Part shown: one piece after another, positions 12,331 through 55,552 of the stretch
Layout of the letters: each line of letters begins with the position of its first letter
How positions within the stretch are numbered: position 1 is the first letter of the stretch
Assembly (NCBI GenBank): GCA_028278525.1
Contig: JANQEE010000017.1
Coordinates: forward strand, 66,274 to 130,273
Length of the DNA stretch: 64,000 nucleotides
Direction of reading: 5' to 3'
DNA from: Minwuiaceae bacterium
GTDB lineage: Bacteria > Pseudomonadota > Alphaproteobacteria > Minwuiales > Minwuiaceae
The notes under the pieces: model-generated
The model's database searches: none
Seen by the model: only the letters and a program-made list of their open reading frames with translations
Told to the model about the DNA's origin: nothing
Position numbers and translations under genes: made by a program

Positions 12331-12353
12331 TCGCGCGTTAGCGGGCGACGGCC

Positions 12354-25716: not shown

Positions 25717-26272
25717 GGTCCCACTCCCGTCTTGTTTTCGTTACACACCGCGTCACGCAGGTCATTCGCCGTAACGGCCATCTCCTGCCGCTCACCCTCG
25801 CCTCTGGGTTGCGCATGCGCGCGGCCGGCCACGCGCCTGAACGGCCTCGAACAATTCAAGCCGCATGACAATCGCCCGGCTAGAAGCCAATCCGATGTAG
25901 GCGAGCGCTCGAAAGAGGTAGAGCAGCCCGGGTAAGCACCGGGCCGGACAATGCCGAACCGGCGCGCGTCGGCACGCCGCGCCCGCCGTTGTTCTTCGTT
26001 CGGTCGTTTTGCCGGTAAGAGAACCGAGAACGCCCGCGTGTCGGATGTACGAACGCGGCCCGGCCTCGATCACCGATCAATTTACCTACCTCCAAATCGG
26101 TAGGAAGGAGCAAATTGATGAACGTTTGGACAGCGCTTAATGCCAAAGGCGAATTGTCACCCCGCGAGAACGCAAGCAAAATTCCAAGAAGTCTTTTTGT
26201 CTTGGTGGTTTATGACGTTGCTTGTACGTACGGCATTCGTGCGGCCGAGCGCATATCGGGGAGGGTGGACCT

Positions 26273-27565: not shown

Positions 27566-27673
27566 GGCGCCGACAGAAGCCGGAACACGCAGGTTCCATC
27601 GGCAGTAATGTAGCGGCGAACGCCGGGGCGGCCCACAGATGACGCAACTGCCGGATGGAAACCGTGCCTGAAG

Positions 27674-29416
27674 TTGACGTCAATGATGCTCGATCGAAAC
27701 GAAAACGGTGACCCGGCCGCAACGGCGGTACGAGCATCTCGCGGCGCCTTTGTCGCGGTTGCCCTGTTCAGTCTGTTTCACAATCTGCTGCTGCTGACCG
27801 TCCCCCTCTACATGCTGCAGATCTACGACCGGGTGCTCACGTCCGGCAGTCAGGCAACGTTGGCGATGCTGACCGTCGTCGCGCTTGGCATGTTGTTGGC
27901 GAGCGCCTTGCTCGAGCTCGTGCGTAATCGAATCCTGACACGTCTGGCAATGCGCCTCGACGATCGCCTGAACGCCGACGTGCTCACGGCGACCCATCGA
28001 CTTCGGCTCGACAAAGTTCAGCAAAACGGACAACCGCTGATCCGCGATCTCGAGATCGTGCGCGCCTTTCTTGCGGGCAACGGCCTCATCGCCCTTCTGG
28101 ATATGCCGTGGACGCCCGTGTTCATCGTGGTGATTTTCCTGTTTCACCCCCTTCTCGGGTCGGTCGCGCTCGGCGGCGTCATTCTGTTGTTCGGGCTTGG
28201 CGTTCTGAATGAGCTGGTGACAAGGAAGCCGCTTAGGGAAGCGCTTCGCGAACACGCGACGGGTCAGTCCTTCGCGGAGACGAGCCTGCAGAACGGCGAT
28301 GTCGTCGAAGCCATGGCAATGCTGCCCGGCCTACACCGGCGCTGGCGCGAGCATCATGAGCGGTCCCTTCTTTTGCAGACGAAATTGAGCGATCGCGCGG
28401 GAACGATTGCCGCCTTCGCCAAGTTTGCCCGCCAAGGCTTGCAGATAGCGATGCTTGGGCTTGGCGCCTATCTCGCGCTGCAGCAGGTAATTACGGCGGG
28501 CGTCATGATCGCCGCATCGATCATCCTCGCCCGTGCGTTGGCGCCAGTCGAATTGTCGATCATGGGTTGGCGGGGTTTCGTGCAGGCACGGGAGTCTTTC
28601 GCGCGGCTGCGGCGGGCCGTCACCTCGGCCGGGCCGGACACCGATCCAATGCGCCTTCCAGACCCGACGGGTCGCATCGCTATCGAGAATCTGTTCGCTG
28701 CGCCTCCGGGGGTCGCGAAACCGGTCCTCCGAAATGTCACCTGCGACCTCGAGCCCGGCCAGATACTCGGTGTGATCGGTCCGAGCGCCGCCGGCAAATC
28801 CACATTGGCACGAGTGCTGGTCGGTGTATGGCAGCCGAAGTCTGGCCATGTGCGCCTGGACGGTGCCGATTTCGCGACCTGGGATCGCCGCCAGCTTGGG
28901 CCGTGTATCGGCTATCTGCCTCAGGACGTCGAGCTGTTCGATGGCTCGATCAAAGAAAACATCGCGCGATTTGAGCTGCCGGTCACGGAGCGGGTCGTCG
29001 CCGCGGCACGGCGTGCGGGCGTCCATGACATGATCCTCGGCCTACCCGACGGCTACAATACGAGGATTGGCGATGGCGGAAGCGTGCTCTCAGGCGGACA
29101 GCGACAGCGTATCGCGCTGGCCCGGGCGCTTTACGGCGACCCGGTGCTGATCGTGCTCGACGAACCGAATGCCAGCCTAGACACCGACGGCGACCACTCC
29201 CTTCGAGTTGCACTGGAAACCCTGAAGGCCGAGCAAAAAACGGTTGTGATCATCTCCCATCGTCTCAATGTGCTGGCGGTGGCCGATCAGCTAATGCTGC
29301 TGCGCGACGGCGCGGTGGAACGATCCGGCCCCCGCGCCGAAGTTCTAACGGCCCTGACGCGGGTGGCGGCCAGCCAGTCGGTCAGCACCAGCCGCGACGC
29401 GGCTGTGGCGACATGA
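27674..29416 (+). CDS. Type I secretion system ABC transporter permease/ATPase (PrtD/HasD-type, no N-terminal C39 domain)
   Basis: A 6-TM domain is followed by an ABC ATPase with Walker A (GPSAAGKST), the signature LSGGQRQRIALARAL, and Walker B (IVLDEP). Confidence 0.9.
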   Translation: MTSMMLDRNENGDPAATAVRASRGAFVAVALFSLFHNLLLLTVPLYMLQIYDRVLTSGSQATLAMLTVVALGMLLASALLELVRNRILTRLAMRLDDRLNADVLTATHRLRLDKVQQNGQPLIRDLEIVRAFLAGNGLIALLDMPWTPVFIVVIFLFHPLLGSVALGGVILLFGLGVLNELVTRKPLREALREHATGQSFAETSLQNGDVVEAMAMLPGLHRRWREHHERSLLLQTKLSDRAGTIAAFAKFARQGLQIAMLGLGAYLALQQVITAGVMIAASIILARALAPVELSIMGWRGFVQARESFARLRRAVTSAGPDTDPMRLPDPTGRIAIENLFAAPPGVAKPVLRNVTCDLEPGQILGVIGPSAAGKSTLARVLVGVWQPKSGHVRLDGADFATWDRRQLGPCIGYLPQDVELFDGSIKENIARFELPVTERVVAAARRAGVHDMILGLPDGYNTRIGDGGSVLSGGQRQRIALARALYGDPVLIVLDEPNASLDTDGDHSLRVALETLKAEQKTVVIISHRLNVLAVADQLMLLRDGAVERSGPRAEVLTALTRVAASQSVSTSRDAAVAT

Positions 29417-30765
29417 CGCTCGTCAACGATATTCGATCGATCGTCCCGTCCGCGCGATCGGAGCACACGCGTTTCAAGGCGGTATTGCAGATGCGGCCGG
29501 CGATCCTAAGCGGCCTGTTCGTGTTGCTCATCACGTTCGGCGGGTTTGGGACGTGGGCGGCGCTCATTCCGATCGACGGCGGCGTGATCGCTCCCGGCTT
29601 CGTCACCGTCGCCACCAACCGCAAGGCCGTACAGCACCTGGATGGCGGTATCGTTGCGGCGGTGATCGTCCGGGACGGCGACGAGGTGCGCGCCGGCGAC
29701 ATTCTCGTTCGCCTCGACAACACCCGTGCCCGCGCCTCGGTGGCCATCTTGCAGGACAGATTGCACTCAGCATTGGCTATCAAGGCACGCCTGACCGCGG
29801 AGCAGACGGGGGCCGCCGAAATCCTGTTTCCACAAATCCTCCTTGATCGAGCGTCGGAACAGGACATCGCGGACATTATGAACGGGCAGCAGGTGTTGTT
29901 TCAGGCACGGCGGGACAGCCTGGTCGGCGAGACGACGATACTGAAGCAGCGCGTCGACCAGTTGACCGGAAAAATCGATGCGATCGAAGCGCAGAAGACG
30001 TCGAAGACCCGGCAACGCGCGCTGATCCATGAGGAGCTTGAAGGCCTTCGAGAGCTTTTTAAGAAAGGCTACACCGAGCGCTCTCGGATCCTGGCATTGT
30101 CACGCACGGCCGCGCGGCTGGAAGGCGAATATGGCGAGCATTCCGCCGACATCGTCCGGGTCGAGGAGGCGATCGGCGAAACGCGATTGCAGATGCTGCA
30201 GGCACAGAAGGCATTTCGCGAAGACGTCGTCGCCGAGCTTCGCGACATTCAGATGCAAATTTTCGATCTCGATGAAAGGGTGGGCGCTGCGCGGGACCTG
30301 GAGGACAAACTGGAGTTACGCGCGCCGGTCGCCGGCACCGTCGTCGCTACCGCAGTGCATGGCATCGGCCAGGTGATCAAGCCGGGAGAGACGATCCTCG
30401 AAATTGTACCCGCCGGGGATCCGCTTGTTATCGAAGCCCATGTCCGCCCTGTCGACATCGACAGCGTTTCCGTGGGGCAAGAGGTCACCGTGCGGCTAAC
30501 CGCCTTCAAGCAACGGACGACACCCACCCTGAGCGGCCGTGTCATCTATGTGTCCGCCGACAGCCTCGTCGGTCGGCAATCAGGCCATGCATACTACTTG
30601 GCGCGTATCGAGGTGCCGAAAGACGAGGCCCGACGTCTGGGCAACCGAAACCTGTTGCCCGGCATGCCCGCTGAAACATTGATACGAACGGGAGGCCGAA
30701 CTGCCATGCAGTATCTGCTGCAACCAATCGCCGATGGCATGGCCCGGGCCTGGCGGGAAGAGTAG
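29413..30765 (+). CDS. HlyD-family T1SS periplasmic adaptor (membrane fusion protein)
   Basis: It has a single N-terminal TM segment, long coiled coils, and a C-terminal beta-domain. It overlaps the ABC gene by 4 bp. Confidence 0.9.
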   Translation: MTLVNDIRSIVPSARSEHTRFKAVLQMRPAILSGLFVLLITFGGFGTWAALIPIDGGVIAPGFVTVATNRKAVQHLDGGIVAAVIVRDGDEVRAGDILVRLDNTRARASVAILQDRLHSALAIKARLTAEQTGAAEILFPQILLDRASEQDIADIMNGQQVLFQARRDSLVGETTILKQRVDQLTGKIDAIEAQKTSKTRQRALIHEELEGLRELFKKGYTERSRILALSRTAARLEGEYGEHSADIVRVEEAIGETRLQMLQAQKAFREDVVAELRDIQMQIFDLDERVGAARDLEDKLELRAPVAGTVVATAVHGIGQVIKPGETILEIVPAGDPLVIEAHVRPVDIDSVSVGQEVTVRLTAFKQRTTPTLSGRVIYVSADSLVGRQSGHAYYLARIEVPKDEARRLGNRNLLPGMPAETLIRTGGRTAMQYLLQPIADGMARAWREE

Positions 30766-32794: not shown

Positions 32795-33526
32795 TCAATC
32801 CGTTCGAACCACGCCGAAAAGGGCGTCGAAGAACCGATACAGTCCGAGTTGCCTGTCCGTATAGGTTTTGGAGAACGTTTGTTTTAGATGACCGCGCGCA
32901 GTATTCGTCGAAATACCTATCGTGGCGGCGATTTGGTCGAGACGATCACCGCGCAGCAACTCCGATGTTATGTGCGCCTGAACCCTTGTCAGTCCGCACA
33001 ATCCGGTCAGATGTTCGGGATTGATCGCCAGGTCACGATTCGGATCAGCAACGAAGACAGCCGCGATCGATATCTGTTCATCCTCGAGTGTGAGGGTTCT
33101 TTCCAAAGGAACGGCCCATGCCAGAAGCGGCCATGCATTGCCGGTGCGTTCCAACGCGACAATCTCGGCGCTGCCGCTGGATCCGTTCTCGTTCTTCGAC
33201 AGGGCGGCGCGAATTTGCTTTCGTAGTTCCCGCGTGTCGCGCGCCGACTCCGCACGGAGGCCGTCGGGCGCCAGTGTGAGACCTTGTTCTTCCGACATCA
33301 ACTGATCGGCGAATTGGTTCGTTATGAAGGGTTTACCCGTGTCGTCGACGATCAGCACGCCAATGAGTATTCGATCCAGAATTTCTCCGAGAAAAAACTC
33401 TCGCTGAGCGGCCGCCCGCAGCAGCCTTTCGATTTTCTTGAAATGCGACGCGACGACGGGATCGAGACTGCAGGTCGACTTGAGCGATTCAAGCTCCCCG
33501 AGTAGTTTTTTCGCGTCGTTGAACAT
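32795..33526 (-). CDS. LuxR-family transcriptional regulator
   Basis: The C-terminal HTH_LuxR is LTRVQAHITSELLRGDRLDQIAATIGISTNTARGHLKQTFSKT. Confidence 0.8.
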   Translation of the reverse strand: MFNDAKKLLGELESLKSTCSLDPVVASHFKKIERLLRAAAQREFFLGEILDRILIGVLIVDDTGKPFITNQFADQLMSEEQGLTLAPDGLRAESARDTRELRKQIRAALSKNENGSSGSAEIVALERTGNAWPLLAWAVPLERTLTLEDEQISIAAVFVADPNRDLAINPEHLTGLCGLTRVQAHITSELLRGDRLDQIAATIGISTNTARGHLKQTFSKTYTDRQLGLYRFFDALFGVVRTD

Positions 33527-33861
33527 GGACTTCCTTGGATACCCAGGGTCAATGCAGGACTCCGATACGATGGCTTGCGGCCTCCACCACGCAACAGAAG
33601 AGACAACTCAGGTATCTTGGAAAACACTAAACTCCGCGGAATGTAGGCGTTAGATAAGCAAGAAATGCTATTAGTAGACCAATTTACTGACGCACATTTG
33701 TATGCAGAATGGTATGCTATTAATTTCTAGCATTTCAAGCGATCAAGTGATGCATCGTCGACCAGAACCGACCAGCGCCTCACCCCGTGACAAACACTCC
33801 AAAGGTTGCTGCAGTACTTGAACAGCGCCCCAGCTTGTCGTTGCCAGGGTCGTTTTATGTA

Positions 33862-34599
33862 TTACGCACTACATCTACGCAACGGCCGGCGAACGATCAA
33901 CGCCAACCCCACAAAGCCGAGGCCTAGCAGAAAAAGCGCAGTGGGTGCGGGAACGGCCTTGGCCATGCCAAGCAGTTGAAGCGCCAAGTCGACGGTTTTC
34001 GTCTCACCAGGGTCGAGAGAGAAGGAATCGAAGCCGGTGAAACCGTCTTCAATTGCGTCGTTGCCCGAGACCCAAGCATCCAAATCGAAGATCGGTTCGT
34101 CATCCACACTGAGCAGAAAGTGTACATCCGCTTTGGCCATCTCGTATTGAGGCGGCGCGTCGATCGACGTCGCCAGAACAACGAACAGATCGACAAGAAA
34201 GTCCAGTTCCAAGGGGTCCGCCGAGACGTTGGACAAATCGAACGACGCCTGCCCGTCGGCCAGAACGCTTGACATGCCGGGCTTATCCGCGGTGCCAAAC
34301 GCCTGGTGCGTCGCGACCAGAAACTGACCTGCAGCATTCGCGTCGACGTCGGAATCCAAGAACGCAATGGCATTGCCGGACGTGGTCGGTGACTGGATAA
34401 GGGAGGTCGTGGGATTACTGACGATCAGCCCATCGTCTTCAGTAAGGACAGCGAAGGCAAAGGCCGCTTCGCCGAAAAAAATAGCGGTCGCTTCCGCGCG
34501 GCTAGCAAATCCAGCTGTCGCAGCGACAATTAGTGTGAAAGCCGCCAAACCTCTTGTTGCCCGGGACGCGGTCACATGCAATGCACGATCGATCTTCAT
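33862..34599 (-). CDS. PEP-CTERM (VPAP variant) sorting-domain secreted protein
   Basis: It has an N-terminal signal peptide. The C-terminus VPAPTALFLLGLGFVGLALIVRRPLRR has the pattern of a PEP-CTERM motif, TM helix and Arg cluster. Confidence 0.65.
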   Translation of the reverse strand: MKIDRALHVTASRATRGLAAFTLIVAATAGFASRAEATAIFFGEAAFAFAVLTEDDGLIVSNPTTSLIQSPTTSGNAIAFLDSDVDANAAGQFLVATHQAFGTADKPGMSSVLADGQASFDLSNVSADPLELDFLVDLFVVLATSIDAPPQYEMAKADVHFLLSVDDEPIFDLDAWVSGNDAIEDGFTGFDSFSLDPGETKTVDLALQLLGMAKAVPAPTALFLLGLGFVGLALIVRRPLRRCSA

Positions 34600-35039
34600 C
34601 GTATCCCTCCCTTGTCGACACGTTCAGTAACGCAACCGGGCCAGCGATCTTATTGATCCTTAGTGGAATAACCCTCCCAAGTGATCTTCAAATGGTAGTC
34701 TAACAGTGTTACGGAGCTGAGACCGACAACCCCCGAACCGTCATTCGCTTCCCAACAACGTCACTTGAACCGCATCACCGATTGAGCTGAGCGCAAGCCG
34801 GTAATGCGCGAACACTCTATCGCTGGCCTTGCGGCAGTTATGAAATCTGCCACCGCGGCGATACTCGCTATTCACGGAACGAAACAGTACTCACGGAACG
34901 AAGAACCGGTGCCTTCTATTTTTCCGTGCTTGCGCGGAATGGGGCACTCGTGATACGAGAAGCAAATTTTATGCCAAGATCGCAGCACCGTGCAACTTCA
35001 ATAGCTTAGTAGTTTAGAGTTTGGTTGCGCTGACGTTAG

Positions 35040-35245
35040 TTGTAAAATTTTTCGACATTTATGCGCGGATTTGGCGAATTGACGAGGCTACAGGACGTAA
35101 TCGCCGCCCGCGAACCTTTCATTCAGAGCCGGCCTGGATCCATGCCTCACGATTTCAACAGGTTAGGCCTGCCAAGGCATCATTTGTTTGGGTCCAGACT
35201 GTAAAATTCTCCGACATTTACGCTCGTATTTGGCGATTGGCGGCC
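35040..35245. repeat. About 45-bp imperfect direct repeats in an AT-rich non-coding stretch
   Basis: ttgtaaaatttttcgacatttatgcgcggatttggcgaattg matches ctgtaaaattctccgacatttacgctcgtatttggcgattg, about 160 bp apart. Confidence 0.6.
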
Positions 35246-35659
35246 TCAGCCGGCATAGAATTTCCTGTCGAAACCTAGGATTTCCGGCGCCTGAAAATCA
35301 CGGACTGCAATTTGTGGATCAATGCTTGTGAATGGCAAACTCGTCGTAATAGAGACGGCTTGACGATTTTCCATTCGGTTTTGGCGCCGGCCGAGCCGCA
35401 TCGGCCGGCGCCAAGAGCGGTAGGCATCGTCGCCGGCTGGGCCCGCGATCCGCCGCGCGGCTGAAACGCCTGCACTAAAATCATCACGTGCTTCTATTCC
35501 GCGTCGACCTTGCCGGCCGCCCTCGAAACGCCATACCCTAAGCACGTCTTGGAACTTTTATGAAAACCGGAGTTCCAATCGTGCGCGGGCTGATCGTCCC
35601 ATCTGCTCGGTACGGCAATCGCGAATGGGGGCGACGGGTAGATCTCCGCCGGGCAGACG

Positions 35660-36394
35660 ATGGCAATGGATGACAAGACTGAACGCCTGACCAGCGACCC
35701 TGTACCGGCACCACAATTAAGCGCCGACGTGGAACGCCTGTTGGCAACGCTTTACGACGGCGGCATCGGCATTGTGCCGCTGGATGTCGCCTATGCCATT
35801 CTGGCCGCGACGCCTGACGGTATTCGCAGCATCTTCGACGCCAAGCAACGCTCCTACGACAAACCGAGCGGCATGTTCGCCAACGTCGAAATGTCGGCGG
35901 CGCTGCATGTCATGGATGTCGACCGGCATGCGATCGTGGCGACCCTGGTCCGCGAGGTCGGACTGCCGTTCTCCGTGGTCGCACCGTTCCGCGAGGATCA
36001 TCCGCTACTCGCCGGCGTCGATCCGTTCGTCCTGCAATCGTCCAGCAAGGCCGGGACACTGGACATGCTGTTGAATGCCGGCCAGTTCCACGACGAGATC
36101 GCCCGTCAGGCGCTGGCCACGGGGCGGCCGGTGTTCGGGTCGTCGGCGAACAGATCGTTGAGCGGCAGCAAGTACCGCCTGGAAGACGTCGAAGCGCCGG
36201 TGCGCGCGGCCGCCGACATCAGTTTCGATTACGGTCGTTCGCGCTATGCTAACGCCGAGGGCCGGTCGAGCACGATCATCGACTTCCGCGATTTCACGGT
36301 GATCCGGGTCGGCGTGTGCTTTGACCGGTTGCGCGCCGCCTTCCTGGAACGCTTCGATATCGCGCTACGAACCGAAGGGGAAACGAGCACATGA
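35660..36394 (+). CDS. YrdC/Sua5 (L-threonylcarbamoyladenylate synthase-like) domain protein, paralog 1
   Basis: It carries the YrdC fingerprint ...GGIGIVPLDVAYAI... and a SGS(A/K) nucleotide loop (GSSANRSLSGSK). Confidence 0.7.
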   Translation: MAMDDKTERLTSDPVPAPQLSADVERLLATLYDGGIGIVPLDVAYAILAATPDGIRSIFDAKQRSYDKPSGMFANVEMSAALHVMDVDRHAIVATLVREVGLPFSVVAPFREDHPLLAGVDPFVLQSSSKAGTLDMLLNAGQFHDEIARQALATGRPVFGSSANRSLSGSKYRLEDVEAPVRAAADISFDYGRSRYANAEGRSSTIIDFRDFTVIRVGVCFDRLRAAFLERFDIALRTEGETST

Positions 36395-37023
36395 CGGACA
36401 TCTACAAGGAGATCGGCTTCGAGGCCCACCGCATCGGGTTCGGCGAACGCCCGGGCATTGCCGTGGTCGACTTCCAACGCGGCTTCACCGATGCCGAGTT
36501 TCCCTTAGGAGGCCGACCGATGGTACAGGACGCCGTGGACAGCACGGCACGACTGCTGGAGGTGGCGCGAGCCAACAACGTTCCGGTCGCCTCATGCTAC
36601 ACCGCCTATACAAGCGGCCGCGACGCGCCCTACTGGAAAATCCCCGCCGTGGTCGAGCAGTTCCATCACGGCCATCCCTGCACCGAACTGGAGCCGAAGA
36701 TCTACGATGCCGAGTACGACGTCGTGATCTGCAAAAGCGCGCCGTCGATCTTCTTCCAGACGGCGATCACGCAGTTCTTCGTCAAAGAGCGGGTCGACAC
36801 CGTTATCGTCGTAGGCTGTAATACCAGTGGATGCATCCGCGCCTCGGTCATCGATGCCTTTTCCAACGGCTTTCGCGTGATCGTGCCCGAGGAATGCGTC
36901 GGCGACGTCGAAGAAGACCCGCACCGAGCCAACCTGACCGACGTGCATCGGCGCTACGCCGACGTGGTCGGACTGGACGAGGTGCTCGACTACCTCGAAG
37001 AAGTGCGCAAACGCAACGCCTAG
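36391..37023 (+). CDS. Isochorismatase-family cysteine hydrolase
   Basis: The catalytic-Cys block VVGCNTSGCIRAS is present. There is a 4-bp overlap with the upstream YrdC-like gene. Confidence 0.85.
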   Translation: MTDIYKEIGFEAHRIGFGERPGIAVVDFQRGFTDAEFPLGGRPMVQDAVDSTARLLEVARANNVPVASCYTAYTSGRDAPYWKIPAVVEQFHHGHPCTELEPKIYDAEYDVVICKSAPSIFFQTAITQFFVKERVDTVIVVGCNTSGCIRASVIDAFSNGFRVIVPEECVGDVEEDPHRANLTDVHRRYADVVGLDEVLDYLEEVRKRNA

Positions 37024-37038
37024 CCACAATGCCAAGGC

Positions 37039-38127
37039 TTGACGAGGTGGTGTTCGAGGGTTCCTGTGGACGATAGATCGGCCATCTTTCTGCAGGTGAT
37101 GATCGCAATCGCGATCGTCGGCATTTTGGCGTTTCTGGTTTCTTTGGCGGTGAGGCGCGTGCGCCGGACGCATGCAGTCGGCGAGGCCGCGGAAGGCCAG
37201 CCGCAATGGCATGAGTTCGTGCTCGGGCTGGTTCTGCTCGCCGTGGTAACCGTCGTCGTGGTTTGGCAGGTCTCTGTTGGCGGCTTGTGGACATGGGGCG
37301 AGGCCGCCATCGACTGGGGTTCCGACCGGCGGGCAGTCGTCTTCATGGTCGTCATGGCGATCGTGGCGGTCCTCGGTCTGCTGGTATTTCTCATCCATTC
37401 GATCGTGCACTCGCCCGCGCGCCGAGCCGCCGCGGCGGCGCCGGATGCCGCTCCGCCCGCGCAGGAAGCAGGCACTGTCAGGACACCGTCCGCCGTTCGC
37501 CTCCTCGGATTGCTGCTGCTGGCGATCGCTTTCCTGTTGCTGAGCGCCGTTTACCTGCCGCGCGACGCGCAGCACCAGTTCATGGTAGCGCTCATCTACC
37601 CGGCCAGCCTGGCAGTCGCCCTGGTGCTGCTGTTCGACAAGGCCAGCCGGGTCTGGAACGCCAAGTCCGGGGCCGAGGTCGTGCGCGAATGGCTGTTCTG
37701 CGATGCCTTGGTATTCCTGCTGTTCCTGGGCTACCTCAATCTGCGGGCGCTGCCGACGCCGGCCGAGTACGCAAACGTCTTCTGGGACGTGCTCGGTCTG
37801 GCGTTATTCTTCGTCGTGTTCTGGCTGCTCGACCGCAAGGTAACCCGCTTTCGTTTCCTGGTCGCCTACGGGTACTTCGTCGCGCTGCCGCTGTTGCTGC
37901 TGATCTGGCGCGCGGTCCAGGGCATCGCCGAGCCGGAGGGGCTGTCGTGGTGGAGCACCATCTGGCCGTTTCTGATCCTGGCGGTCGTGTTCTTCGTACT
38001 GGAGATCGCCGCCCTGCTGGCGGATCGGGGCGCCGGCAAACACGCAATACCGGCGGTGAAGGACGCGGTGTTCCTTGTGCTTTATGGGATCCTCCTGATC
38101 ATTGCTATCCCTGAGGCGGCCGCCTGA
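37039..38127 (+). CDS. Polytopic membrane protein of unknown function
   Basis: It has 8 or more hydrophobic helices. The exact start is uncertain, with several in-frame GTG/ATG candidates. Confidence 0.5.
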   Translation: MTRWCSRVPVDDRSAIFLQVMIAIAIVGILAFLVSLAVRRVRRTHAVGEAAEGQPQWHEFVLGLVLLAVVTVVVVWQVSVGGLWTWGEAAIDWGSDRRAVVFMVVMAIVAVLGLLVFLIHSIVHSPARRAAAAAPDAAPPAQEAGTVRTPSAVRLLGLLLLAIAFLLLSAVYLPRDAQHQFMVALIYPASLAVALVLLFDKASRVWNAKSGAEVVREWLFCDALVFLLFLGYLNLRALPTPAEYANVFWDVLGLALFFVVFWLLDRKVTRFRFLVAYGYFVALPLLLLIWRAVQGIAEPEGLSWWSTIWPFLILAVVFFVLEIAALLADRGAGKHAIPAVKDAVFLVLYGILLIIAIPEAAA

Positions 38128-38242
38128 TGCCACACCGGCGGATATCAACGGCGCCCATGGCGGTTGCCACCGTCTCATGCCTTCGGATAACGTTTTCCTG
38201 TGCCGGGGCTGCCTGGCACCTGCTGCGTTACTTTAAGGTCGC

Positions 38243-38719
38243 GTGAACATGTTGGGTTGGCACTGGTTCTGGACGCTGGTCGGATTTCTGGTCTACATCG
38301 TCGTCCTGATCTTCCTCTACTTCTACCAGCCGTTCGAGGACCTGTTCACCCTCGTGGTCAACGGCCTGAGCTACGACAATGCGATCTTCTGGGCGGTGGT
38401 GACCATCGCAATCATCGGCTTTTGCGGTTACCACTGGCGAGCCTACAGACTCTATATCGTCGAGCAGAGCAGCGTTGAGCGCATGGTCCTGGCCTCGCTG
38501 CGCGGGTCGACCTTCGTCGCCGTTCTGTTGAGCGCGGGGGCAGCCCTGCAGGCGGTGCAGATCCTCTGCGTCTACCTGCTTCGGGACGATTTCGGTCTGG
38601 ACCGTGAATTCGGCCTGCGCTTGGCCGCGGTCCTCGCGCTGGTCATCCTGACCGGCATCTTCTGCATCATTTTCTGGCTGCTGCGAGTCGTTCGTACCGC
38701 GCCGGCCCGTTCAGGCTGA
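38243..38719 (+). CDS. Small 4-TM membrane protein (LFLYFYQPFE family, paralog A)
   Basis: It has four hydrophobic helices. It shares the LFLYFYQPFE, TLQAVQ and LLxxVVRxA blocks with the 52390 ORF. Confidence 0.6.
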   Translation: MNMLGWHWFWTLVGFLVYIVVLIFLYFYQPFEDLFTLVVNGLSYDNAIFWAVVTIAIIGFCGYHWRAYRLYIVEQSSVERMVLASLRGSTFVAVLLSAGAALQAVQILCVYLLRDDFGLDREFGLRLAAVLALVILTGIFCIIFWLLRVVRTAPARSG

Positions 38720-38743
38720 CGCGGCGACGCTCGCTCTCCGCAT

Positions 38744-40213
38744 CTAGCGTACGCCGGGCGTGCCGAGACCGGGCCGCGACGCCAGCGGGTCGCGCTGCAG
38801 CTGCGCGGACGTATTGGCGTACTGGCCGCCGTAAGGGCCGCGCTTGACGAAGCGGCCGTCGCCGGCACGGCCAACATACTGACCCTTGTCGACGATGACC
38901 CGGCCGCGCGACAGCACCGTTTCGGTGACACCCTTCACGGCGAAGCCCTCATAGGCGTTGTAGTCGATGTTCATGTGATGGGTGTGCGGATTGTGCCGGC
39001 TGATGATCTCCTCGCGTTCCGGGTCGAAAATGACGATGTCGGCATCGCTGCCAACGGCAATCGTGCCCTTGCGCGGAAACAGGCCGAAGATCATTGCCGG
39101 CCGTGTCGACGTGATTTCGACGAAACGATTGAGCGTGATCCGGCCCAGGTTGACGCCATAGTGATAGATCAAACTCATGCGGTTCTCGACGCCGGGACCG
39201 CCATTGGGGATCTGGGAGAAGTCGTCGCGGCCCAGTTCCTTCTGCTCGCGCAGGCAGAACGGGCAATGATCGGTCGAGATGACGTCGAGCGAGCTGGTCC
39301 TGAGCCCGTTCCACAACTCGTCCTGGTTCCAGTCCTCGCGCAGCGGCGGCGTTAGAACGTATTTCGCACCGTCGAAACCGGGCTCGTCATACCGGTTGAC
39401 GTCGAGCAGCAGGTATTGCGGGCAGGTTTCGGCATGCGCCATCACGCCGCGCGCCTGTGCCTGACGGAGTTCGTGCAACGCGTCATAGCAGCTTAGGTGG
39501 ACGATATAGACCGGCGCTTGTGCGACCTCCGCGATCGCCAGGGCGCGGTGCGCGCCTTCCGCCTCAAGCCGGGTCGGCCGGGTGCGGGCGTGGTATTTCG
39601 GCGTGGTGTGGCCCTGGGACAGCGCGATCTTCACCAGTTCGTCGATTACGATGCCGTTTTCCGCATGCATGCAGACCAGCGTGCCGTCTTCCCCGGCCTT
39701 GCGCATGGCCCGAAAGATCGTGCCGTCGTCGGAAAGCAGAACCCCCGGGTAGGCCATGAACATCTTGTAGCTGGTCACTCCCTCGTCAGCGAGCTGCCGC
39801 ATCTCCGGTATGCGCTCTTCCGGCATATCGGTGATAATCATGTGAAACGCGTAATCGATCGCAGTCTTGCCCTCCGCCTTTGCATGCCACTGGTCGAGAG
39901 CGGCGATGGTCGACGTACCGCGGCTTTGAATGGCGAAGTCGACGAGGCAGGTGGTACCGCCAAACGCCGCCGCGCGGGTCCCGGTTTCGAATGTATCGGA
40001 CGTGGTGGTGCCGCCGAACGGCATCTCAAGGTGGGTATGCGGGTCGACACCGCCCGGGATAACCAGCCGTCCGCTGGCATCGATCACCGTGTCCGCTTCG
40101 ATCGACAAATCGCGACCGATCAGCGAAACCGTCTGGTCGGCAATGAAGATATCGGCACGGTAGTCATCGGCGGCGGTGACGATGCGGCCGTTCTTGATCA
40201 ATATGCTCACCAT
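38744..40213 (-). CDS. Dihydropyrimidinase / D-hydantoinase (cyclic amidohydrolase)
   Basis: The metal ligands PGGVDPHTHLEMPF are present, along with a carboxylated-Lys region. The gene is 489 aa. Confidence 0.9.
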   Translation of the reverse strand: MVSILIKNGRIVTAADDYRADIFIADQTVSLIGRDLSIEADTVIDASGRLVIPGGVDPHTHLEMPFGGTTTSDTFETGTRAAAFGGTTCLVDFAIQSRGTSTIAALDQWHAKAEGKTAIDYAFHMIITDMPEERIPEMRQLADEGVTSYKMFMAYPGVLLSDDGTIFRAMRKAGEDGTLVCMHAENGIVIDELVKIALSQGHTTPKYHARTRPTRLEAEGAHRALAIAEVAQAPVYIVHLSCYDALHELRQAQARGVMAHAETCPQYLLLDVNRYDEPGFDGAKYVLTPPLREDWNQDELWNGLRTSSLDVISTDHCPFCLREQKELGRDDFSQIPNGGPGVENRMSLIYHYGVNLGRITLNRFVEITSTRPAMIFGLFPRKGTIAVGSDADIVIFDPEREEIISRHNPHTHHMNIDYNAYEGFAVKGVTETVLSRGRVIVDKGQYVGRAGDGRFVKRGPYGGQYANTSAQLQRDPLASRPGLGTPGVR

Positions 40214-40381
40214 TTGCCTCCCAGCACATAGCAGTTGGCAGCTACGACAAGTTATGTATCATTTGAGGCACTGGCTCTCTTGACAAGGTTTTTTGCCGGC
40301 ACGGTCAACAGGGTTCGGTACGTAGCAGTGCGGCGCAACGCGAACGCCGCATAAACAACGTGCAGTAATGGGGAGGCAGTT

Positions 40382-41668
40382 ATGACAACCAAACAAAAAC
40401 GCAAGACAGAGCGCTCGAGTTCACGCGGAGTTTCCCGCCGAACGCTTATGGGTACGGCCGCTGGTGCGGCGGCGGTCGGGGCGATCGGAGGATTTCCGGC
40501 AATCGTGCGTGCTGCGGATCCGATCCGCACCATCGGGCTCGGCGTCAGCATTATCAATGAAATCCAGGGCCAGGCTTCCACGGACCTTGGTTTTCCCGTG
40601 CGCGGTCAAGCGCTCGGCTATGGCGCGATGTTCGGCAAGATGCTGAACCAGAACGACCAATACGAGATTGCCGAGGGCTACTTCAATGACATGGACGTGT
40701 TCATTCCGTCCAAGGTGTGGCAACCGATCGACACCACACGCATCAAGGAATGGGACAAGGTCACCAACCTGTCGAAGACCGGCAAGCTGACGCCGGAATC
40801 GGCTGTCGGTCAGGGCGATGCGCCGTTCCGCCATCTCTGGCTTGACGAGAACGGCGAACGTGTCGACGGACCGTCGCGCTATATCTCTATGGTGCCGGCT
40901 TGGCATAACGCCGATTCCATCGGCTACAACCCGGAGGAAACAGGGCGCAAGATCGAGAGCTGGGCAGAACTGTTACACCCGGATTTCGCCGGTCGAGTGG
41001 CCCTTTTGAACGTCCCGCAGATCGGCGTCATGGATGCCGCAATGGCGGTCGAAGCCATGGGCATAATGACCTTTAAGGACAAGGGTGACATGTCGAAGGC
41101 GGAGATCGACGAGTTGATCAACATCCTGATCGACAAGAAGAGGGCCGACCATTTCCGCGCCTTCTGGGAATCGTTCGGTCAGTCGGTCAACCTGATGGTC
41201 AGCGGCGAAGTCGCAATACAAAGCATGTGGTCGCCGGCGGTGACGGCGATCAAAGCCGAGGGCGTGCCCTGCATCTACGCCTTCCCGAAGGAAGGCATGC
41301 GCGGCTGGCACGGCGGTCTGGCGATTTCCGCCAAGGTCACCGGTAAAGCGCTCGACCAGGCCTACGAATACATCAACTGGTGGCTCGCCGGCTGGCCCGG
41401 CGCCTTCGTCGCCCGGCAAGGCTACTACATGTCGGTGCCGGAAAACGTGAAGAAGCACCTCGAGCCTGAGGAATGGGATTTCTGGTACGAGGGCAAGCCG
41501 GCCGCCAAGGAACTGCCGGATCCGTTCGACACCATCATCGTCGAGAAGGACGAAGTGCGCGATGGCGGCTCCTATTGGGACCGTTTCAAGAATATCGCCG
41601 TGTGGAACTCGTTGATGACGGAGAACGACTACCTGGTCAAACGCTGGACGGAATTCCTGACCGCCTGA
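40382..41668 (+). CDS. ABC transporter periplasmic substrate-binding protein (PotD/PotF polyamine-type family) with Tat/Sec signal
   Basis: The leader SRRTLMGTAAGAAAVGAIGGFPAIVRA is a Tat/Sec signal. The gene is 428 aa and lies upstream of two permease genes. Confidence 0.8.
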   Translation: MTTKQKRKTERSSSRGVSRRTLMGTAAGAAAVGAIGGFPAIVRAADPIRTIGLGVSIINEIQGQASTDLGFPVRGQALGYGAMFGKMLNQNDQYEIAEGYFNDMDVFIPSKVWQPIDTTRIKEWDKVTNLSKTGKLTPESAVGQGDAPFRHLWLDENGERVDGPSRYISMVPAWHNADSIGYNPEETGRKIESWAELLHPDFAGRVALLNVPQIGVMDAAMAVEAMGIMTFKDKGDMSKAEIDELINILIDKKRADHFRAFWESFGQSVNLMVSGEVAIQSMWSPAVTAIKAEGVPCIYAFPKEGMRGWHGGLAISAKVTGKALDQAYEYINWWLAGWPGAFVARQGYYMSVPENVKKHLEPEEWDFWYEGKPAAKELPDPFDTIIVEKDEVRDGGSYWDRFKNIAVWNSLMTENDYLVKRWTEFLTA

Positions 41669-41759
41669 CCAGCCGTGATGTAATAACCGGGACCGGCTGG
41701 CCCAGGCCAGCCGGTCTTGTTTTGTCGGGCCGAACGGTCGGCCTCGGCACCGTCAGAGG

Positions 41760-42812
41760 ATGGCGGTCAGTGTGAGCACAGTCGATTCAACATCGAAACC
41801 GCCGGGTGACGTGGAACTGCCCACTACACCGGACGATGCCGAACGGCGGGTGCCGCCGCCGGCGCTGGTCGGCGGGACGCCGGCGGCACCCGCCGGCTTC
41901 GCCGCGGTCAAGGCCGACAATCGCGAAGGCGGCTTTCCGACATTGTGGCTGATCGCGCCGGCGACGCTGTGGCTGCTGGTCTTCCTTGTGCTGCCGCTGC
42001 TCGGCATCATTGTGTTCAGTTTTTGGGACACCGAAGGCGGCAAGCTGATCGCCGACCCGACGTTGGAACACTATCGCGACTATTTCTACACGGAAGGCTT
42101 CTTCGACTCCGAGTCGCGCAACTTCCTGACCCTCAGCGTATTTATCCGCACCCTCGGCTCGACATTTTACTTCACCGCCCTGGTAATGGTGCTGTGTCTG
42201 ATCGTCGGCTATCCGATCGCGTACTTCCTGGCCATGCAGGTGGGAAGCTTCAAGTGGCAGATGGCACTGTTCCTGCTGTGCATGGTGCCATTCTGGACCA
42301 GCTATCTGATCCGTGCCGTTGCCTGGCTGCCCATGCTGGGCCGGCGCGGGCTGCTTAACGAGCTGTTGTTGCTGACTGGCGTCGTCGACAAGCCGGTCAG
42401 CTTTCTGCTCTATTCCGAGTTCGGCTATGTGATGGCGCTGGTGCAGATCTACGTTGTGCTTGGCGTCGGCCCGATATTCTTCTCGCTTGCAAAAATCGAC
42501 AAGGCGATCATCGAAGCCGCCCGCGACATGGGCGCGACGCCCTTCCAGATCTTCCGTGAGATCATCGGTCCCCTGTCGCTGCCGGGCGTGGCGATCGGAA
42601 TGATCTTCATCTTCGTTATGCTTATGGGTGAGTTCGCGACCGCGGTCGTGGTTTACGGCGGCAAGGCATCGACCACCGGCACCGTGATCCTGAACTACTA
42701 CGCGATTGCCAATTATCCGTTCGCGGCGGTAAACGCCCTTATGCTCATGCTGGCGATGATGATCGGCGTCGTCATCATTCTGCGCGTCGTCGATATCCGG
42801 AAGGAGCTCTGA
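41760..42812 (+). CDS. ABC transporter permease (PotB-like)
   Basis: It has 6 TM segments and an EAA-like loop (AARDMGATPFQIFREI). The true start is probably downstream of the first in-frame codon. Confidence 0.75.
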   Translation: MAVSVSTVDSTSKPPGDVELPTTPDDAERRVPPPALVGGTPAAPAGFAAVKADNREGGFPTLWLIAPATLWLLVFLVLPLLGIIVFSFWDTEGGKLIADPTLEHYRDYFYTEGFFDSESRNFLTLSVFIRTLGSTFYFTALVMVLCLIVGYPIAYFLAMQVGSFKWQMALFLLCMVPFWTSYLIRAVAWLPMLGRRGLLNELLLLTGVVDKPVSFLLYSEFGYVMALVQIYVVLGVGPIFFSLAKIDKAIIEAARDMGATPFQIFREIIGPLSLPGVAIGMIFIFVMLMGEFATAVVVYGGKASTTGTVILNYYAIANYPFAAVNALMLMLAMMIGVVIILRVVDIRKEL

Positions 42813-42814
42813 AC

Positions 42815-43642
42815 ATGGCCAGGTGGACACCGGAACGTCGGCGCCGGACCTGGATCAAGGGTGGCTTCAGCGTCTACTACGTGATCTTTCTGGTGTTCAT
42901 CTACGGGCCGATGTTCGCGATGTTCGTCCTGTCCTTTCAGGGCCGGCGTGGCGGCACCAGCTTTCCCATGCGGGGGGTGAGCCTGCATTGGTGGGAGAAG
43001 CTGATCGAACCGTCGACGGTCGGCGATCTGCAGGGTGCCCTTATGCGTTCGCTGATCCTGGCGCTGATTGTCATGGTCATCACGGCGCTGTTCTCGACCA
43101 TGCTGGCAATGGCTTTCCGCAAGCGCTTCTTCGGCTCCGACGCACTGTTCTTCACCGTTATGGCCGGCCTGATGGTGCCCGGCGTCCTGCTCAGCCTGGG
43201 GCTCGCCACCATGATGAGGCAATTGGGCATTCCGACCAACTGGTGGTCGTCCGGTCTGGGCGTGCACGTGGTCTGGACCCTGCCGTTCGGCTTCCTGGTC
43301 ATGATGGCGGTGTTCAACCGTTTCGATGCGCGCCTGGAAGAAGCCGCCCGCGACATGGGCGCCGACGAATGGACAGTATTCAAGGAGGTCACGCTACCGC
43401 TGATTACGCCGGGCATCGTCGCGGCCGGCCTGTTCGGCTTCACGCTGTCTTACGACGAGTTCGCTCGCACGACGTTGCTGGCCGGCGCCAATAACACCCT
43501 GCCGCTCGACATCAATGCGTCGATGACCCAGCGCATTCGACCGACGCTGTTCGCGCTTGGAACCGCCTCGACCGTCTTTTCGTTGTTTATGATCGGGCTT
43601 TTTCTGGTGATCTACACGGCGCTGACACGCCGGCTGCGCTAG
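42815..43642 (+). CDS. ABC transporter permease (PotC-like)
   Basis: It has 6 TM segments and an EAA loop (EAARDMGADEWTVFKEVTLP). Confidence 0.8.
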   Translation: MARWTPERRRRTWIKGGFSVYYVIFLVFIYGPMFAMFVLSFQGRRGGTSFPMRGVSLHWWEKLIEPSTVGDLQGALMRSLILALIVMVITALFSTMLAMAFRKRFFGSDALFFTVMAGLMVPGVLLSLGLATMMRQLGIPTNWWSSGLGVHVVWTLPFGFLVMMAVFNRFDARLEEAARDMGADEWTVFKEVTLPLITPGIVAAGLFGFTLSYDEFARTTLLAGANNTLPLDINASMTQRIRPTLFALGTASTVFSLFMIGLFLVIYTALTRRLR

Positions 43643-55404: not shown

Positions 55405-55552
55405 GTCGTCGCTCCAACGCGTGGAAAACCGGTAGACCGGAAGCCTTCCATGTCGGCCGCGCAACGGCAAGAGGAAGATCGCACATTAACGCCAGCCAAA
55501 GGCCGGGCTGGCGCGTTCGTGAATCCTGCTGCATCATCTGCTCTGTTGCAGG

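Follow-up and report, generated by a model that had tools for sequence, protein, structure and literature searches.

The window analysed here, a stretch of 64,000 nucleotides from a Minwuiaceae bacterium, encodes two stand-alone YrdC-fold proteins, YrdC1 and YrdC2 (Table 1), which fall into a clade distinct from TsaC/Sua5 and lie in conserved catabolic neighbourhoods together with ring-opening hydrolases and amidases. Judged by alignment and a predicted model, the ATP-binding site of this clade is kept and its threonine site is lost, which suggests the same chemistry on a different substrate. We give about even chances to the reading that these YrdC-likes are AMP- and PPi-forming enzymes which take a ring-opened intermediate of cyclic amide or ureide breakdown and activate it at a carbamate or carboxyl group. 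PF01300 belongs to the small set of truly universal enzyme families and, outside t6A, it is to our knowledge understood only as a domain fused into HypF and into TobZ-type carbamoyltransferases. Here, a cleanly delimited, widespread stand-alone clade with a reproducible genomic context turns a mis-annotation into a testable hypothesis, namely a missing ATP-dependent step in the catabolism of hydantoins, dihydropyrimidines, lactams or imides.

Table 1. Genes of the window around YrdC1 and YrdC2 and related genes further upstream.
Feature	Position	Strand	Description
PrpB-like lyase	11470-12330	+	PEP-mutase/ICL family; upstream of third isochorismatase
Third isochorismatase	12354-13037	+	Follows PrpB-like lyase
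YrdC1	35660-36394	+	Stand-alone YrdC-fold protein, 244 aa, type-1 subfamily; PF01300
Iso1	36391-37023	+	Isochorismatase-family Cys-amidase, 210 aa; catalytic triad D27/K115/C148 intact
Polytopic membrane protein	37263-38127	+	No Pfam match; ORF may begin at 37039
D-hydantoinase/dihydropyrimidinase	38744-40213	-	Metal-dependent; TIGR02033 605.8 bits (cutoff 393)
ABC importer	40382-43642	+	PotD-like binding protein 40382-41668; permeases 41760-42812 and 42815-43642
ABC transporter ATPase	43648-44772	-	PotA-like
SPFH/Band7-domain protein	44833-47658	-	941 aa; conserved between ATPase and HyuB1
HyuB1	47714-50035	-	ATP-dependent hydantoinase/oxoprolinase family; 170-aa N-terminal extension
HyuA1	50047-52092	-	Hydantoinase/oxoprolinase family; pairs with HyuB1
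Polysaccharide-deacetylase-family protein	54328-55470	-	PF01522
Iso2	55553-56296	+	Second isochorismatase-family amidase; best NCBIfam matches weak (BiuH, RutB)
HyuB2	57102-59036	-	Pairs with HyuA2; caprolactamase-like ATP-dependent ring-opening hydrolase
HyuA2	59060-61513	-	N-terminal helix and Pro/Ala/Arg-rich linker
YrdC2	61668-62354	+	Stand-alone YrdC-fold protein, 228 aa, type-2 subfamily; PF01300

Two divergent PF01300 proteins apart from TsaC

The original prediction, that two divergent YrdC paralogues lacking the Sua5 C-domain are embedded in amidohydrolase clusters, agrees with our analysis in each of these points. Both reading frames are in place and match PF01300 (Sua5_yciO_yrdC) with 34.1 bits for YrdC1 and 47.1 bits for YrdC2, above the gathering score of 25.1; PF01300 is the sole Pfam domain of either protein, so that a SUA5 C-domain is missing from both, and the two are 44% identical across 214 residues (E 1e-61). 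Its claim of a translational coupling of YrdC1 to the isochorismatase gene fits the ATGA at 36391-36394, in which the YrdC1 stop codon overlaps the Iso1 start, with an AAGGGGA Shine-Dalgarno-like motif upstream of the overlap. For YrdC2, the start at 61668 is favoured because homologues are about 227 aa long, and the gene is indeed divergent from hyuAB: hyuA2, whose true start is the ATG at 61513, lies on the opposite strand at a distance of 154 bp. A 122-aa ORF upstream of YrdC2 (61300-61668) was rejected as a probable shadow ORF, since it runs antisense to the N-terminal extension that is conserved in HyuA2.

Each subfamily counts more than 1,100 homologues; out of 1.84 billion, a family profile at E<=1e-3 recovered only 1,570 representatives. 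The carriers are mainly Alpha- and Gammaproteobacteria with some Betaproteobacteria, of marine and soil origin, and they have two to three YrdC-like copies per genome; cultured ones include Aquibium sp. A9E412, Hoeflea sp. CAU 1731, Flavimaribacter sediminis WL0058 and Variovorax paradoxus VAI-C. In a fusion scan of eight long representatives, four revealed PF01300 alone, one a TENA/PQQC-like fusion, and three looked like gene-call run-ons (PrpD, HCS, DnaJ); no isochorismatase or Kae1-like fusion was seen among the eight.

The only NCBIfam model matched by YrdC1 and YrdC2 is TIGR00057, at 34.2 and 43.4 bits against an equivalog cutoff of 123.2, and identity of the YrdC-likes to E. coli TsaC amounts to 17-19%. 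Queries with E. coli TsaC and YciO (phmmer, tblastn) left the YrdC-likes undetected, a sign of their divergence, and the same searches revealed no canonical TsaC in the window or the compared loci. A neighbour-joining tree with these two E. coli proteins as outgroups placed both subfamilies in one clade, apart from TsaC and YciO on a long branch. The AF2 model of YrdC1 (pLDDT 94.7) matched Sua5, TsaC2, HypF and TsaC in Foldseek with TM 0.54-0.72 and 12-20% identity. Its top match and nearest solved structure is smu.1377c of Streptococcus mutans (PDB 3l7v, from structural genomics; E 5e-12, TM 0.72), and the sequence profile likewise reached E 4e-13 with 3l7v versus 3e-3 with TsaC2/Sua5, so that this protein is closer than TsaC, Sua5 or YciO by both measures. 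It is also stand-alone and has KxR and SSAN motifs, but differs by an identity of only about 18-25%, a length of 295 aa and another C-terminus; being uncharacterised, it gives no functional information on the YrdC-likes.

Active-site residues and known relatives

In an alignment of the YrdC-likes to Pa-Sua5 at 17-20% identity, combined with the predicted model and with no ligand complex superposed, the ATP/PPi tetrad K56xR58/S143xN145 of that enzyme (PMC6004061) corresponds to K62-Q-R64/S162-A-N164 of YrdC1 and to the same invariant residues in YrdC2. 24/24 family members keep this KxR/SxN tetrad, which serves as a filter for TsaC/Sua5 (PMC10321239), unchanged, as does most of the extended clade; a few distant members (P0310, P0311) are without it. 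The two residues contacting the bicarbonate/carbamoyl group, R195 and S181 in Pa-Sua5 (PMC6004061), are kept as R216 and S204 in YrdC1 and are invariant in the family. The threonine-binding residues T35, H67 and R121 (PMC6004061) are replaced: T35 by L/M/N41 (L41 in YrdC1), H67 by F/L/I/V73 (F73 in YrdC1) and R121 by an invariant L137, Arg being found at that position in no clade member. New invariant residues, namely K68, H114, N139, H144 and K171, and a conserved C-terminal helix complete the picture.

These features bear on the JGI names, according to which the YrdC-likes would be ordinary or back-up TsaC proteins standing in catabolic islands by chance. The PF01300 match and the kept tetrad are in keeping with such a view, yet it has hardly any likelihood left given the low TIGR00057 scores, the low identity to E. 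coli TsaC, the replacement of the T35, H67 and R121 equivalents across the whole clade, and the two to three copies per genome that, at the loci compared, always lie in catabolic operons and never beside tsaB/D/E-type genes. Because TIGR00057 stays far below its cutoff, the threonine-binding residues are lost and the clade is separate, YrdC1 and YrdC2 are, as far as their sequences tell, almost certainly not TsaC, and the JGI naming is an annotation error. In comparison, TsaC/Sua5 (TsaC2; EC 2.7.7.87; 1hru, 3aje, 6f87, 9d3h) have the YrdC fold, KxR/SxN and the Arg/Ser pair in common with the YrdC-likes, and TsaC is single-domain as well; at 17-20% identity, the YrdC-likes differ by their hydrophobic residues in place of the threonine-binding ones, their extra invariant residues and C-terminal helix, a catabolic instead of a translation-related context, and several paralogues per genome.

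YciO (E. coli b1267; PDB 1k7j) resembles the YrdC-likes as a stand-alone PF01300 paralogue of TsaC of uncharacterised function, and makes no t6A in vivo. The E. coli protein has R-x-L and S-x-M at the tetrad positions, however, whereas the YrdC-likes keep KxR/SxN. A basic, RNA-binding patch is present on YciO, whose gene clusters with rnm (RNase AM) (PMC12506659); the YrdC-likes cluster with amidohydrolases instead, and rnm was not found in their neighbourhoods.

The YrdC-like domains of HypF and TobZ/NodU adenylate carbamate derived from carbamoyl phosphate, not N-carboxy-threonine, and thus provide a precedent for carbamoyl-AMP chemistry outside tRNA. They are fused to a Kae1/TsaD-like transferase, however, whereas YrdC1 and YrdC2 are stand-alone and no Kae1/TsaD-like gene occurs in the neighbourhoods listed; the HypF domain is also a weaker Foldseek match (TM about 0.56, 12-15% identity). 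Of the repurposed carbamoyl-adenylate or carbamoyl-transfer function originally predicted, adenylation fits the kept ATP tetrad and Arg, while a HypF-like transfer is weakened by the lack of a transferase partner, fused or nearby.

Conserved gene neighbourhoods

The position of the YrdC-likes beside hydantoinases and a carbamoyl-amidase-like isochorismatase, from which the original prediction had started, turned out to be a conserved one, shared by hundreds of genomes. The arrangement was met again in dozens of genomes and metagenome contigs that are independent of one another and is therefore not due to chance. In 48/79 loci, YrdC1 is followed directly, at a spacing of 3-72 bp, by an Iso1 orthologue; where Iso1 is missing, an AtzE-like amidase stands in its place. 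Full-length type-1 loci contain a ring opener (HyuAB or D-hydantoinase) in 49/56 cases, an amidase in 48/56 and both in 42/56, as well as PrpD in 21/56 and PEP-mutase in 17/56, and a D-hydantoinase orthologue (~80% identity) lies near YrdC1 in 25-27 of 56-57 such loci. HyuAB was found in 17 of 35 type-2 loci, and the divergent hyuA arrangement of the window recurs in 6. In the full-text literature, we found no paper dealing with an association of YrdC-likes with hydantoinase, isochorismatase or PrpD genes.

Other genes of the window take part in this synteny. The ABC importer is syntenic with D-hydantoinase and YrdC1 in many loci, a PotA-like ATPase gene lies directly upstream of YrdC1 in three (L001, L002, L009), and the HyuB1/HyuA1 island has the same gene order in L001. 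Iso2 orthologues are located directly upstream of YrdC1 in L003-5, L090 and L038, and the polysaccharide-deacetylase-family gene is syntenic in L006, L007 and L100; the PF01522 family to which it belongs includes the allantoinase PuuE. The gene of the polytopic membrane protein recurs downstream of YrdC1, with or without Iso1, at other loci. Scans for sigma-70 promoters and terminators around YrdC1 gave hits at or below shuffle expectation, Rfam yielded no credible match in the whole window at gathering thresholds or in 34500-35800 at E<=1, and a plasmid megablast with 35000-41000 returned no match. One deeper member of the clade (P0312) occupies an isolated position in a 10.8-Mb genome, where its neighbourhood is uninformative.

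HyuA2/HyuB2 orthologues (70-88% identity) adjoin YrdC1 or YrdC2 in many loci, and a compact four-gene operon, hyuA-hyuB-yrdC1-iso1, recurs. Such an operon would also be expected if the YrdC-likes were non-catalytic or regulatory accessory subunits docking on a HyuAB-type enzyme and gating its ATPase, and the N-terminal helix and flexible linker that are conserved in HyuA2 orthologues beside YrdC-like genes could serve for docking. Enzymes of the HyuAB family can require extra subunits, as in the case of acetophenone carboxylase, whose Apc-epsilon is essential and loosely bound (PMC5214803). Apc-epsilon was itself considered as a YrdC-like homologue and dropped, as the paper names no family for it and TIGR00057 is the one NCBIfam model that the YrdC-likes match, so that it serves as a precedent for accessory subunits. 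We nevertheless judge this role improbable: in about 25 loci, YrdC1-Iso1 go with a metal-dependent D-hydantoinase while a close orthologue of HyuA2B2 is missing, L037 and L049 are among those without any HyuAB within 10 kb, TIGR00057 is the only NCBIfam model matched, and the invariant, full ATP tetrad together with the carbamoyl-site Arg argues for catalysis.

Possible role in the breakdown of cyclic amides and ureides

The two subfamilies are sister groups of a stand-alone clade that has probably left tRNA t6A synthesis and may now be firmly established in gene modules for the breakdown of cyclic amides, ureides or imides. In such a module, an imported heterocycle would be hydrolysed by an ATP-dependent HyuAB or a metal-dependent D-hydantoinase, its amide or ureido nitrogen would then be removed by an isochorismatase-family (N-carbamoylsarcosine-amidase-like) Cys-amidase or an AtzE-like Ser-amidase, and the carbon skeleton would be handed to PrpD-like, PEP-mutase/ICL-like and CoA-dependent enzymes. 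For its part, the YrdC-like protein retains, by alignment, the TsaC machinery for converting ATP to AMP and PPi and the Arg/Ser site for the bicarbonate/carbamoyl carbon, with hydrophobic residues and new invariant His and Asn in place of the threonine pocket, as would suit TsaC-type chemistry on a new substrate. Most likely, it would form an adenylate on the ring-opened intermediate, at an N-carboxy (carbamate) or a carboxyl group, perhaps once CO2 has been added to an amine or ureido nitrogen of that intermediate, with the translationally coupled amidase either supplying the adenylated or N-carboxy species or using it up. From the kept ATP site and the linkage to ring openers and amidases, we infer a hitherto unrecognised ATP-dependent step in cyclic amide and ureide breakdown, with an adenylate product and the amidase as a partner. 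If activation of a carbamate or ureido group proves true, ureides would be seen to give up their nitrogen by a new route, and an ancient tRNA-modification enzyme to have been recruited into catabolism.

N-carbamoylsarcosine amidohydrolases (CSHases) release an N-carboxy amine, which is the type of substrate that TsaC adenylates, and Iso1 matches solved members (26st at 1.1e-39, 1nba at 7.8e-28). The maleamate amidases, which are likewise among its closest solved structures, score almost as well (4l07 at 6.9e-33; 3uao was also matched), so that Iso1 may have either specificity. Moreover, the carbamoylases and CSHases known to us work without ATP, and carbamates lose their CO2 spontaneously; it is difficult to see why a catabolic pathway should spend ATP once the amidase has acted. 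The Gammaproteobacterial HyuAB-PrpD-YrdC1 loci contain no amidase, and a Variovorax cluster with tandem YrdC-likes, PEP-mutase/ICL, LeuCD-like dehydratase, CoA ligase and tricarboxylate-type binding proteins has no ring opener, hydantoinase or amidase, so that the organic-acid branch may be the conserved partner in place of a ureido intermediate.

It is thus conceivable, though in our view unlikely, that in a cyclic-imide or lactam pathway the YrdC-likes serve the organic-acid branch, where a di- or tricarboxylate would be adenylated or otherwise handled in place of a carbamoyl or carbamate species, for example on a route from a substituted maleimide via maleamate, maleate and malate to lyase products. 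Besides the maleamate amidase matches of Iso1 and the Variovorax cluster, this would explain the PrpD-like genes directly upstream of YrdC1 in 19/80 loci, the PEP-mutase/ICL or PrpD-ACAD-CoA-transferase genes that directly follow YrdC2, and the gene adjoining hyuB in L008, which belongs to the Asp/Glu-racemase family, the family of maleate isomerase; D-hydantoinases, for their part, are known imidases. On the other hand, ring openers and amidases are commoner at type-1 loci than PrpD and PEP-mutase, the relatives of the amidases are of the ureide type (CSHase, BiuH, RutB, AtzE), the kept Arg and Ser are those with which Sua5 holds bicarbonate or the carbamoyl group, and we know of no YrdC-fold enzyme that adenylates a plain carboxylate. 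The N-carbamoyl metabolites originally proposed as substrates are one option only: the PrpD-like, PEP-mutase/ICL-like, CoA-transferase and acyl-CoA dehydrogenase genes present in many loci, and the Variovorax context, agree just as well with a cyclic-imide/dicarboxylate route.

TsaC chemistry is biosynthetic and the D-hydantoinase reaction reversible, and the Cys of HypE takes a carbamoyl group from the carbamoyl-AMP of HypF. A YrdC-like could accordingly form a biosynthetic module with a reverse-running Cys-amidase whose nucleophile takes carbamoyl from carbamoyl-AMP, as an ATP-dependent ureido/hydantoin synthetase turning amine, CO2, NH3 and ATP into an N-carbamoyl compound that is then cyclised. 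The context is catabolic throughout, though, with binding-protein-dependent importers, TonB receptor/MFS, GntR regulators, a chemoreceptor and CoA-transferase/ACAD near the YrdC-likes and no exporter or tailoring genes, and we consider such a synthetase very unlikely.

Returning to the activation of a ring-opened intermediate, a more specific and speculative version, to which we attach a low probability, is that the clade represents an 'N-carboxylating adenylyltransferase' which derives from TsaC, works without biotin and feeds the coupled Cys- or Ser-amidase. ATP and CO2/bicarbonate would turn a poorly reactive amide or ureido nitrogen into an allophanate-like carbamoyl-adenylate, which relatives of CSHase, BiuH, RutB or AtzE would then cleave, and the type-1 and type-2 paralogues may form a heteromer. 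Urea amidolyase and guanidine carboxylase follow the same logic of activation by carboxylation, which would here have been reinvented on the fold of a t6A enzyme.

The pairing of a HyuAB ring opener with an isochorismatase-family carbamoyl-amidase is shared with the creatinine/N-methylhydantoin and Hyu pathways, but the YrdC-like loci display no creatinine deaminase or sarcosine oxidase, and in the literature searched no YrdC-like component was found in described hydantoin-utilisation pathways. PrpD-like, PEP-mutase/ICL, DUF3891 and CoA-transferase proteins are partners of the YrdC-likes outside those pathways, and the loci thereby flag a candidate pathway of HyuAB/D-hydantoinase, two isochorismatases, two YrdC-likes, DUF3891, PrpD-like, PEP-mutase/ICL-like and CoA-transferase/ACAD proteins. 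Further upstream in the window, the PrpB-like lyase and the third isochorismatase represent families that also occur as partners beside YrdC-likes in other genomes.

The two YrdC-like genes and their distance from TsaC

YrdC1 and YrdC2, the two YrdC/TsaC-like proteins of the window, are 44% identical to each other and stand at either end of a single catabolic island (35.6-62.4 kb). As the original prediction had claimed, both lack the Sua5 C-terminal domain, Pfam finding PF01300 in each and the SUA5 domain in neither. The start proposed for YrdC2, ATG 61668, agrees with the homologue length of about 227 aa, from which we also derived it. Translational coupling of yrdC1 to iso1, encoding an isochorismatase-family amidase, was likewise borne out by an ATGA overlap of stop and start and an upstream AAGGGGA motif. 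The ~1 kb 5' of yrdC1 contains no convincing ORF, Rfam match or sigma-70-like promoter, and Rfam gave no match across the whole window. yrdC2 is divergent from hyuA2, which begins at ATG 61513 (minus-strand reading), with an intergenic region of 154 bp. A 122-aa ORF in this area is probably no gene, being antisense to the conserved N-terminal extension of HyuA2.

Each paralogue has more than 1,100 homologues (60-96% identity, about 225-260 aa), mostly from alpha- and gammaproteobacterial MAGs with a few isolates, and named in databases only as 'Sua5/YciO/YrdC/YwlC family' or, by JGI, as TsaC. The subfamilies of YrdC1 (type 1) and YrdC2 (type 2) carry the motifs KPSGMF and KLNAML, respectively. 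A profile of both types matched only 1,570 of 1.84 billion cluster representatives at E<=1e-3, and 114 at <=1e-30, which marks out a small clade, clearly set apart. Against TIGR00057, the TsaC equivalog, YrdC1 and YrdC2 score 34 and 43 bits, the cutoff being 123; E. coli TsaC and YciO, to which they are 17-19% identical, detected neither when used as queries. The divergence from TsaC was also seen in a neighbour-joining tree with these two proteins as its only outgroups, where a long branch leads to a single clade holding both types along with about 30 deeper representatives. The AF2 model (pLDDT 94.7) has the YrdC fold; among solved structures it is closest to the uncharacterised smu.1377c (3l7v), with which the YrdC-like proteins group, followed by Sua5/TsaC2 (TM 0.63-0.72) and then by YciO, HypF YrdC domains and E. 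coli TsaC.

Active site and comparison with characterised relatives

Residue roles were taken from P. abyssi Sua5 (PMC6004061) and transferred by alignment. The ATP/PPi tetrad, K56-x-R58 and S143-x-N145 of that enzyme, is invariant as K62-x-R64 and S162-x-N164, and so are R216 (R195, bicarbonate/carbamoyl binding) and S204 (S181, threonine/carbamoyl contact). All three threonine-binding residues are replaced, T35 by L41 (M or N in type 2), H67 by F73 (L, I or V in type 2) and R121 by an invariant leucine, L137; an arginine at the R121 position is absent throughout the extended clade. K68, H114, N139, H144 and K171 are newly invariant in the family, and a C-terminal helix is conserved. The simplest reading of alignment and predicted model is that nucleotide and carbamoyl chemistry would be kept and the amine substrate would have changed. 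Many members bear the JGI/IMG label 'tRNA A37 threonylcarbamoyladenosine synthetase subunit TsaC/SUA5/YrdC'. With the threonine-binding residues lost and TIGR00057 scores under the cutoff, they have probably been over-annotated systematically.

In comparison with TsaC, YrdC1 and YrdC2 thus lack both the threonine-binding residues and the equivalog score; they differ from YciO in their intact tetrad and in having no rnm gene nearby, and from HypF and TobZ in having no fused or nearby Kae1-like partner. The repurposed carbamoyl-adenylate role suggested originally is in line with the tetrad, the retained R216 and the loss of the threonine residues, but its HypF-like side is not matched by a partner. 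The fold is known and the chemistry probably so; the stand-alone catabolic role and the substrate pocket would be new, and we found no paper in which a member of the YrdC family is tied to gene clusters for hydantoinase, oxoprolinase or isochorismatase.

Gene neighbourhoods and partner enzymes

Window proteins were mapped by tblastn onto 80 type-1 loci of species-representative genomes, the maps covering only genes with a query in the window-protein set. In 48 of 79 loci the gene immediately 3' of yrdC1 encodes an Iso1 orthologue (55-82% identity), the gap between the alignments being 3-72 bp. Full 10-kb flanks were available for 56 loci. A ring opener (HyuA and HyuB, or a D-hydantoinase of ~80% identity) occurs in 49 of them, an amidase in 48 and the two together in 42; we estimate, rather than compute, a chance adjacency within 10 kb of a few percent, if a genome of 4-6 Mb is assumed to carry a few copies of hyuAB. 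Several architectures recur. One is hyuA-hyuB-yrdC1-iso1. In another, hyuA-hyuB-iso2-yrdC1-iso1, stops and starts overlap; a DUF3891 gene of divergent orientation comes next, and beyond it yrdC2, accompanied by PEP-mutase/ICL, PrpD-like, ACAD and CoA-transferase genes. A third combines an ABC importer, D-hydantoinase, PEP-mutase and DUF3891 with yrdC1-iso1 and a PrpD-like gene. A further arrangement, in loci without Iso1, is yrdC1, the membrane protein and, as substitute, an AtzE-like amidase-signature amidase, and in Gammaproteobacteria hyuA-hyuB-PrpD-like-yrdC1-TonB receptor-MFS occurs without an amidase.

For type 2, six contexts were looked up individually, along with 35 metagenome loci no shorter than 10 kb. 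Of these 35, 17 contain HyuAB and six show the exact divergent hyuA/yrdC2 arrangement of the window; 12 have a type-1-like paralogue within 1.6 kb and 15 organic-acid or CoA genes. On a chromid of Variovorax paradoxus VAI-C, two tandem type-2-like genes (54% mutual identity) belong to one operon that also encodes an esterase, two TTT binding proteins, ICL/PEP-mutase, CoA ligase, LeuCD-like dehydratase subunits and CapA, with no hydantoinase or amidase at the cluster. This strain is cultured, making the function testable there.

In 16 of 80 loci, yrdC1 has as its divergent neighbour the gene for the DUF3891 protein (~280 aa, weak N-terminal HTH match), which may regulate the pathway; this gene is absent from the window.

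Features of the island in gene order, with its surroundings and examples from homologous loci (L numbers) of other genomes
Feature	Position	Strand	Remark
PrpB-like PEP-mutase/ICL-family lyase, then third isochorismatase	11470-13037	+	23 kb upstream
RTX calcium-binding repeat proteins, type I secretion ABC/HlyD pair	26222-30765, 62784-63809
Two small PEP-CTERM-like proteins	32795-34599
Region 5' of yrdC1	34600-35660
YrdC1	35660-36394	+	244 aa; PF01300, 34.1 bits
Iso1	36391-37023		210 aa
Polytopic membrane protein	37039/37263-38127	+	no Pfam/NCBIfam match
D-hydantoinase/dihydropyrimidinase		-	TIGR02033, 606 bits
PotD-like ABC importer
SPFH/Band7 protein	44833-47658	-	941 aa
HyuB1/HyuA1
HyuB1 N-terminal extension	49520-50035	-	Hydantoinase_B domain from residue 174 of 773
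CobW GTPase
Polysaccharide-deacetylase-family protein
Iso2			second isochorismatase
HyuB2/HyuA2			caprolactamase-like, under curated cutoff
HyuA2 N-terminal extension	61100-61513	-	~135 aa
122-aa ORF	61300-61668		probably no gene
YrdC2 (ORF)	61611-62354	+	PF01300, 47.1 bits
DUF3891, L049	9031-9882	-
DUF3891, L051	9071-9928	-
DUF3891, L090	11387-12223	-
V. paradoxus VAI-C locus, L099	CP063167.1, 866926-891579

Iso1 has an intact Asp27-Lys115-Cys148 triad, and its closest solved relatives are N-carbamoylsarcosine amidohydrolases (CSHases; 1.1e-39, also 1nba), with maleamate amidases almost as close; Iso2 and the third isochorismatase match only weakly, to BiuH and RutB. The amidase relatives, CSHase, BiuH, RutB and AtzE, all have ureido or N-carboxy compounds as substrates. 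What CSHase-type enzymes release is an N-carboxy amine, the class of molecule adenylated by TsaC. N-carboxy-L-threonine is the TsaC intermediate (PMC6004061). A different direction is suggested by the PrpD-like, PEP-mutase/ICL, LeuCD-like, Asp/Glu-racemase, CoA-transferase and ACAD partners, which recall the way nicotinate and cyclic imides are broken down through dimethylmaleate hydratase/dimethylmalate lyase and maleamate amidase/maleate isomerase. Either a ureide or an imide/lactam could thus be the imported heterocycle, the data favouring neither.

Proposed role and further features of the island

Every functional statement made here is inferred from sequence, predicted structure and gene context. 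YrdC1 and YrdC2 are very probably non-TsaC components of catabolic modules. As catalytic, AMP/PPi-forming enzymes, they would work jointly with the coupled amidase and activate a ring-opened intermediate at a carbamate or carboxyl group; the chances that an adenylate is formed are about even, and an N-carboxy or ureido substrate is a doubtful, tentative choice. At its boldest, this would be a TsaC-derived, biotin-independent step of 'activation by N-carboxylation', analogous in logic to urea amidolyase. The main weakness of the proposed mechanism is energetic: to our knowledge, known carbamoylases have no ATP requirement, so an ATP-dependent step is hard to account for.

The RTX, type I secretion and PEP-CTERM-like genes flanking the island appear unrelated to the YrdC finding. 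Both families of the upstream lyase-isochorismatase pair also flank YrdC-like genes in other genomes. The polytopic membrane protein 3' of YrdC1(-Iso1) recurs in about 18 of 56 loci (30-49% identity), often with an AtzE-like amidase 3' of it. The unusually long SPFH/Band7 protein, between the ABC ATPase and HyuB1, has a counterpart of 75% identity and conserved position in the homologous locus L001, where the HyuB1 orthologue is called at 744 aa. A conserved amphipathic helix, MASKDDRLTSWFDDHLSDLNNEWDKLG, opens the HyuA2 extension; a low-complexity linker rich in Pro, Ala and Arg separates it from the Hydant_A_N domain (GYRLGVDVGG). Among the orthologues compared (loci L003, L008, L009, L024, L026, L038-L059, L080 and L090), nearly all HyuA proteins adjoining YrdC-like genes have an equivalent helix, e.g., MSNSDDSVRKYEQRIAELEARLRRME, which may serve in docking or oligomerisation.
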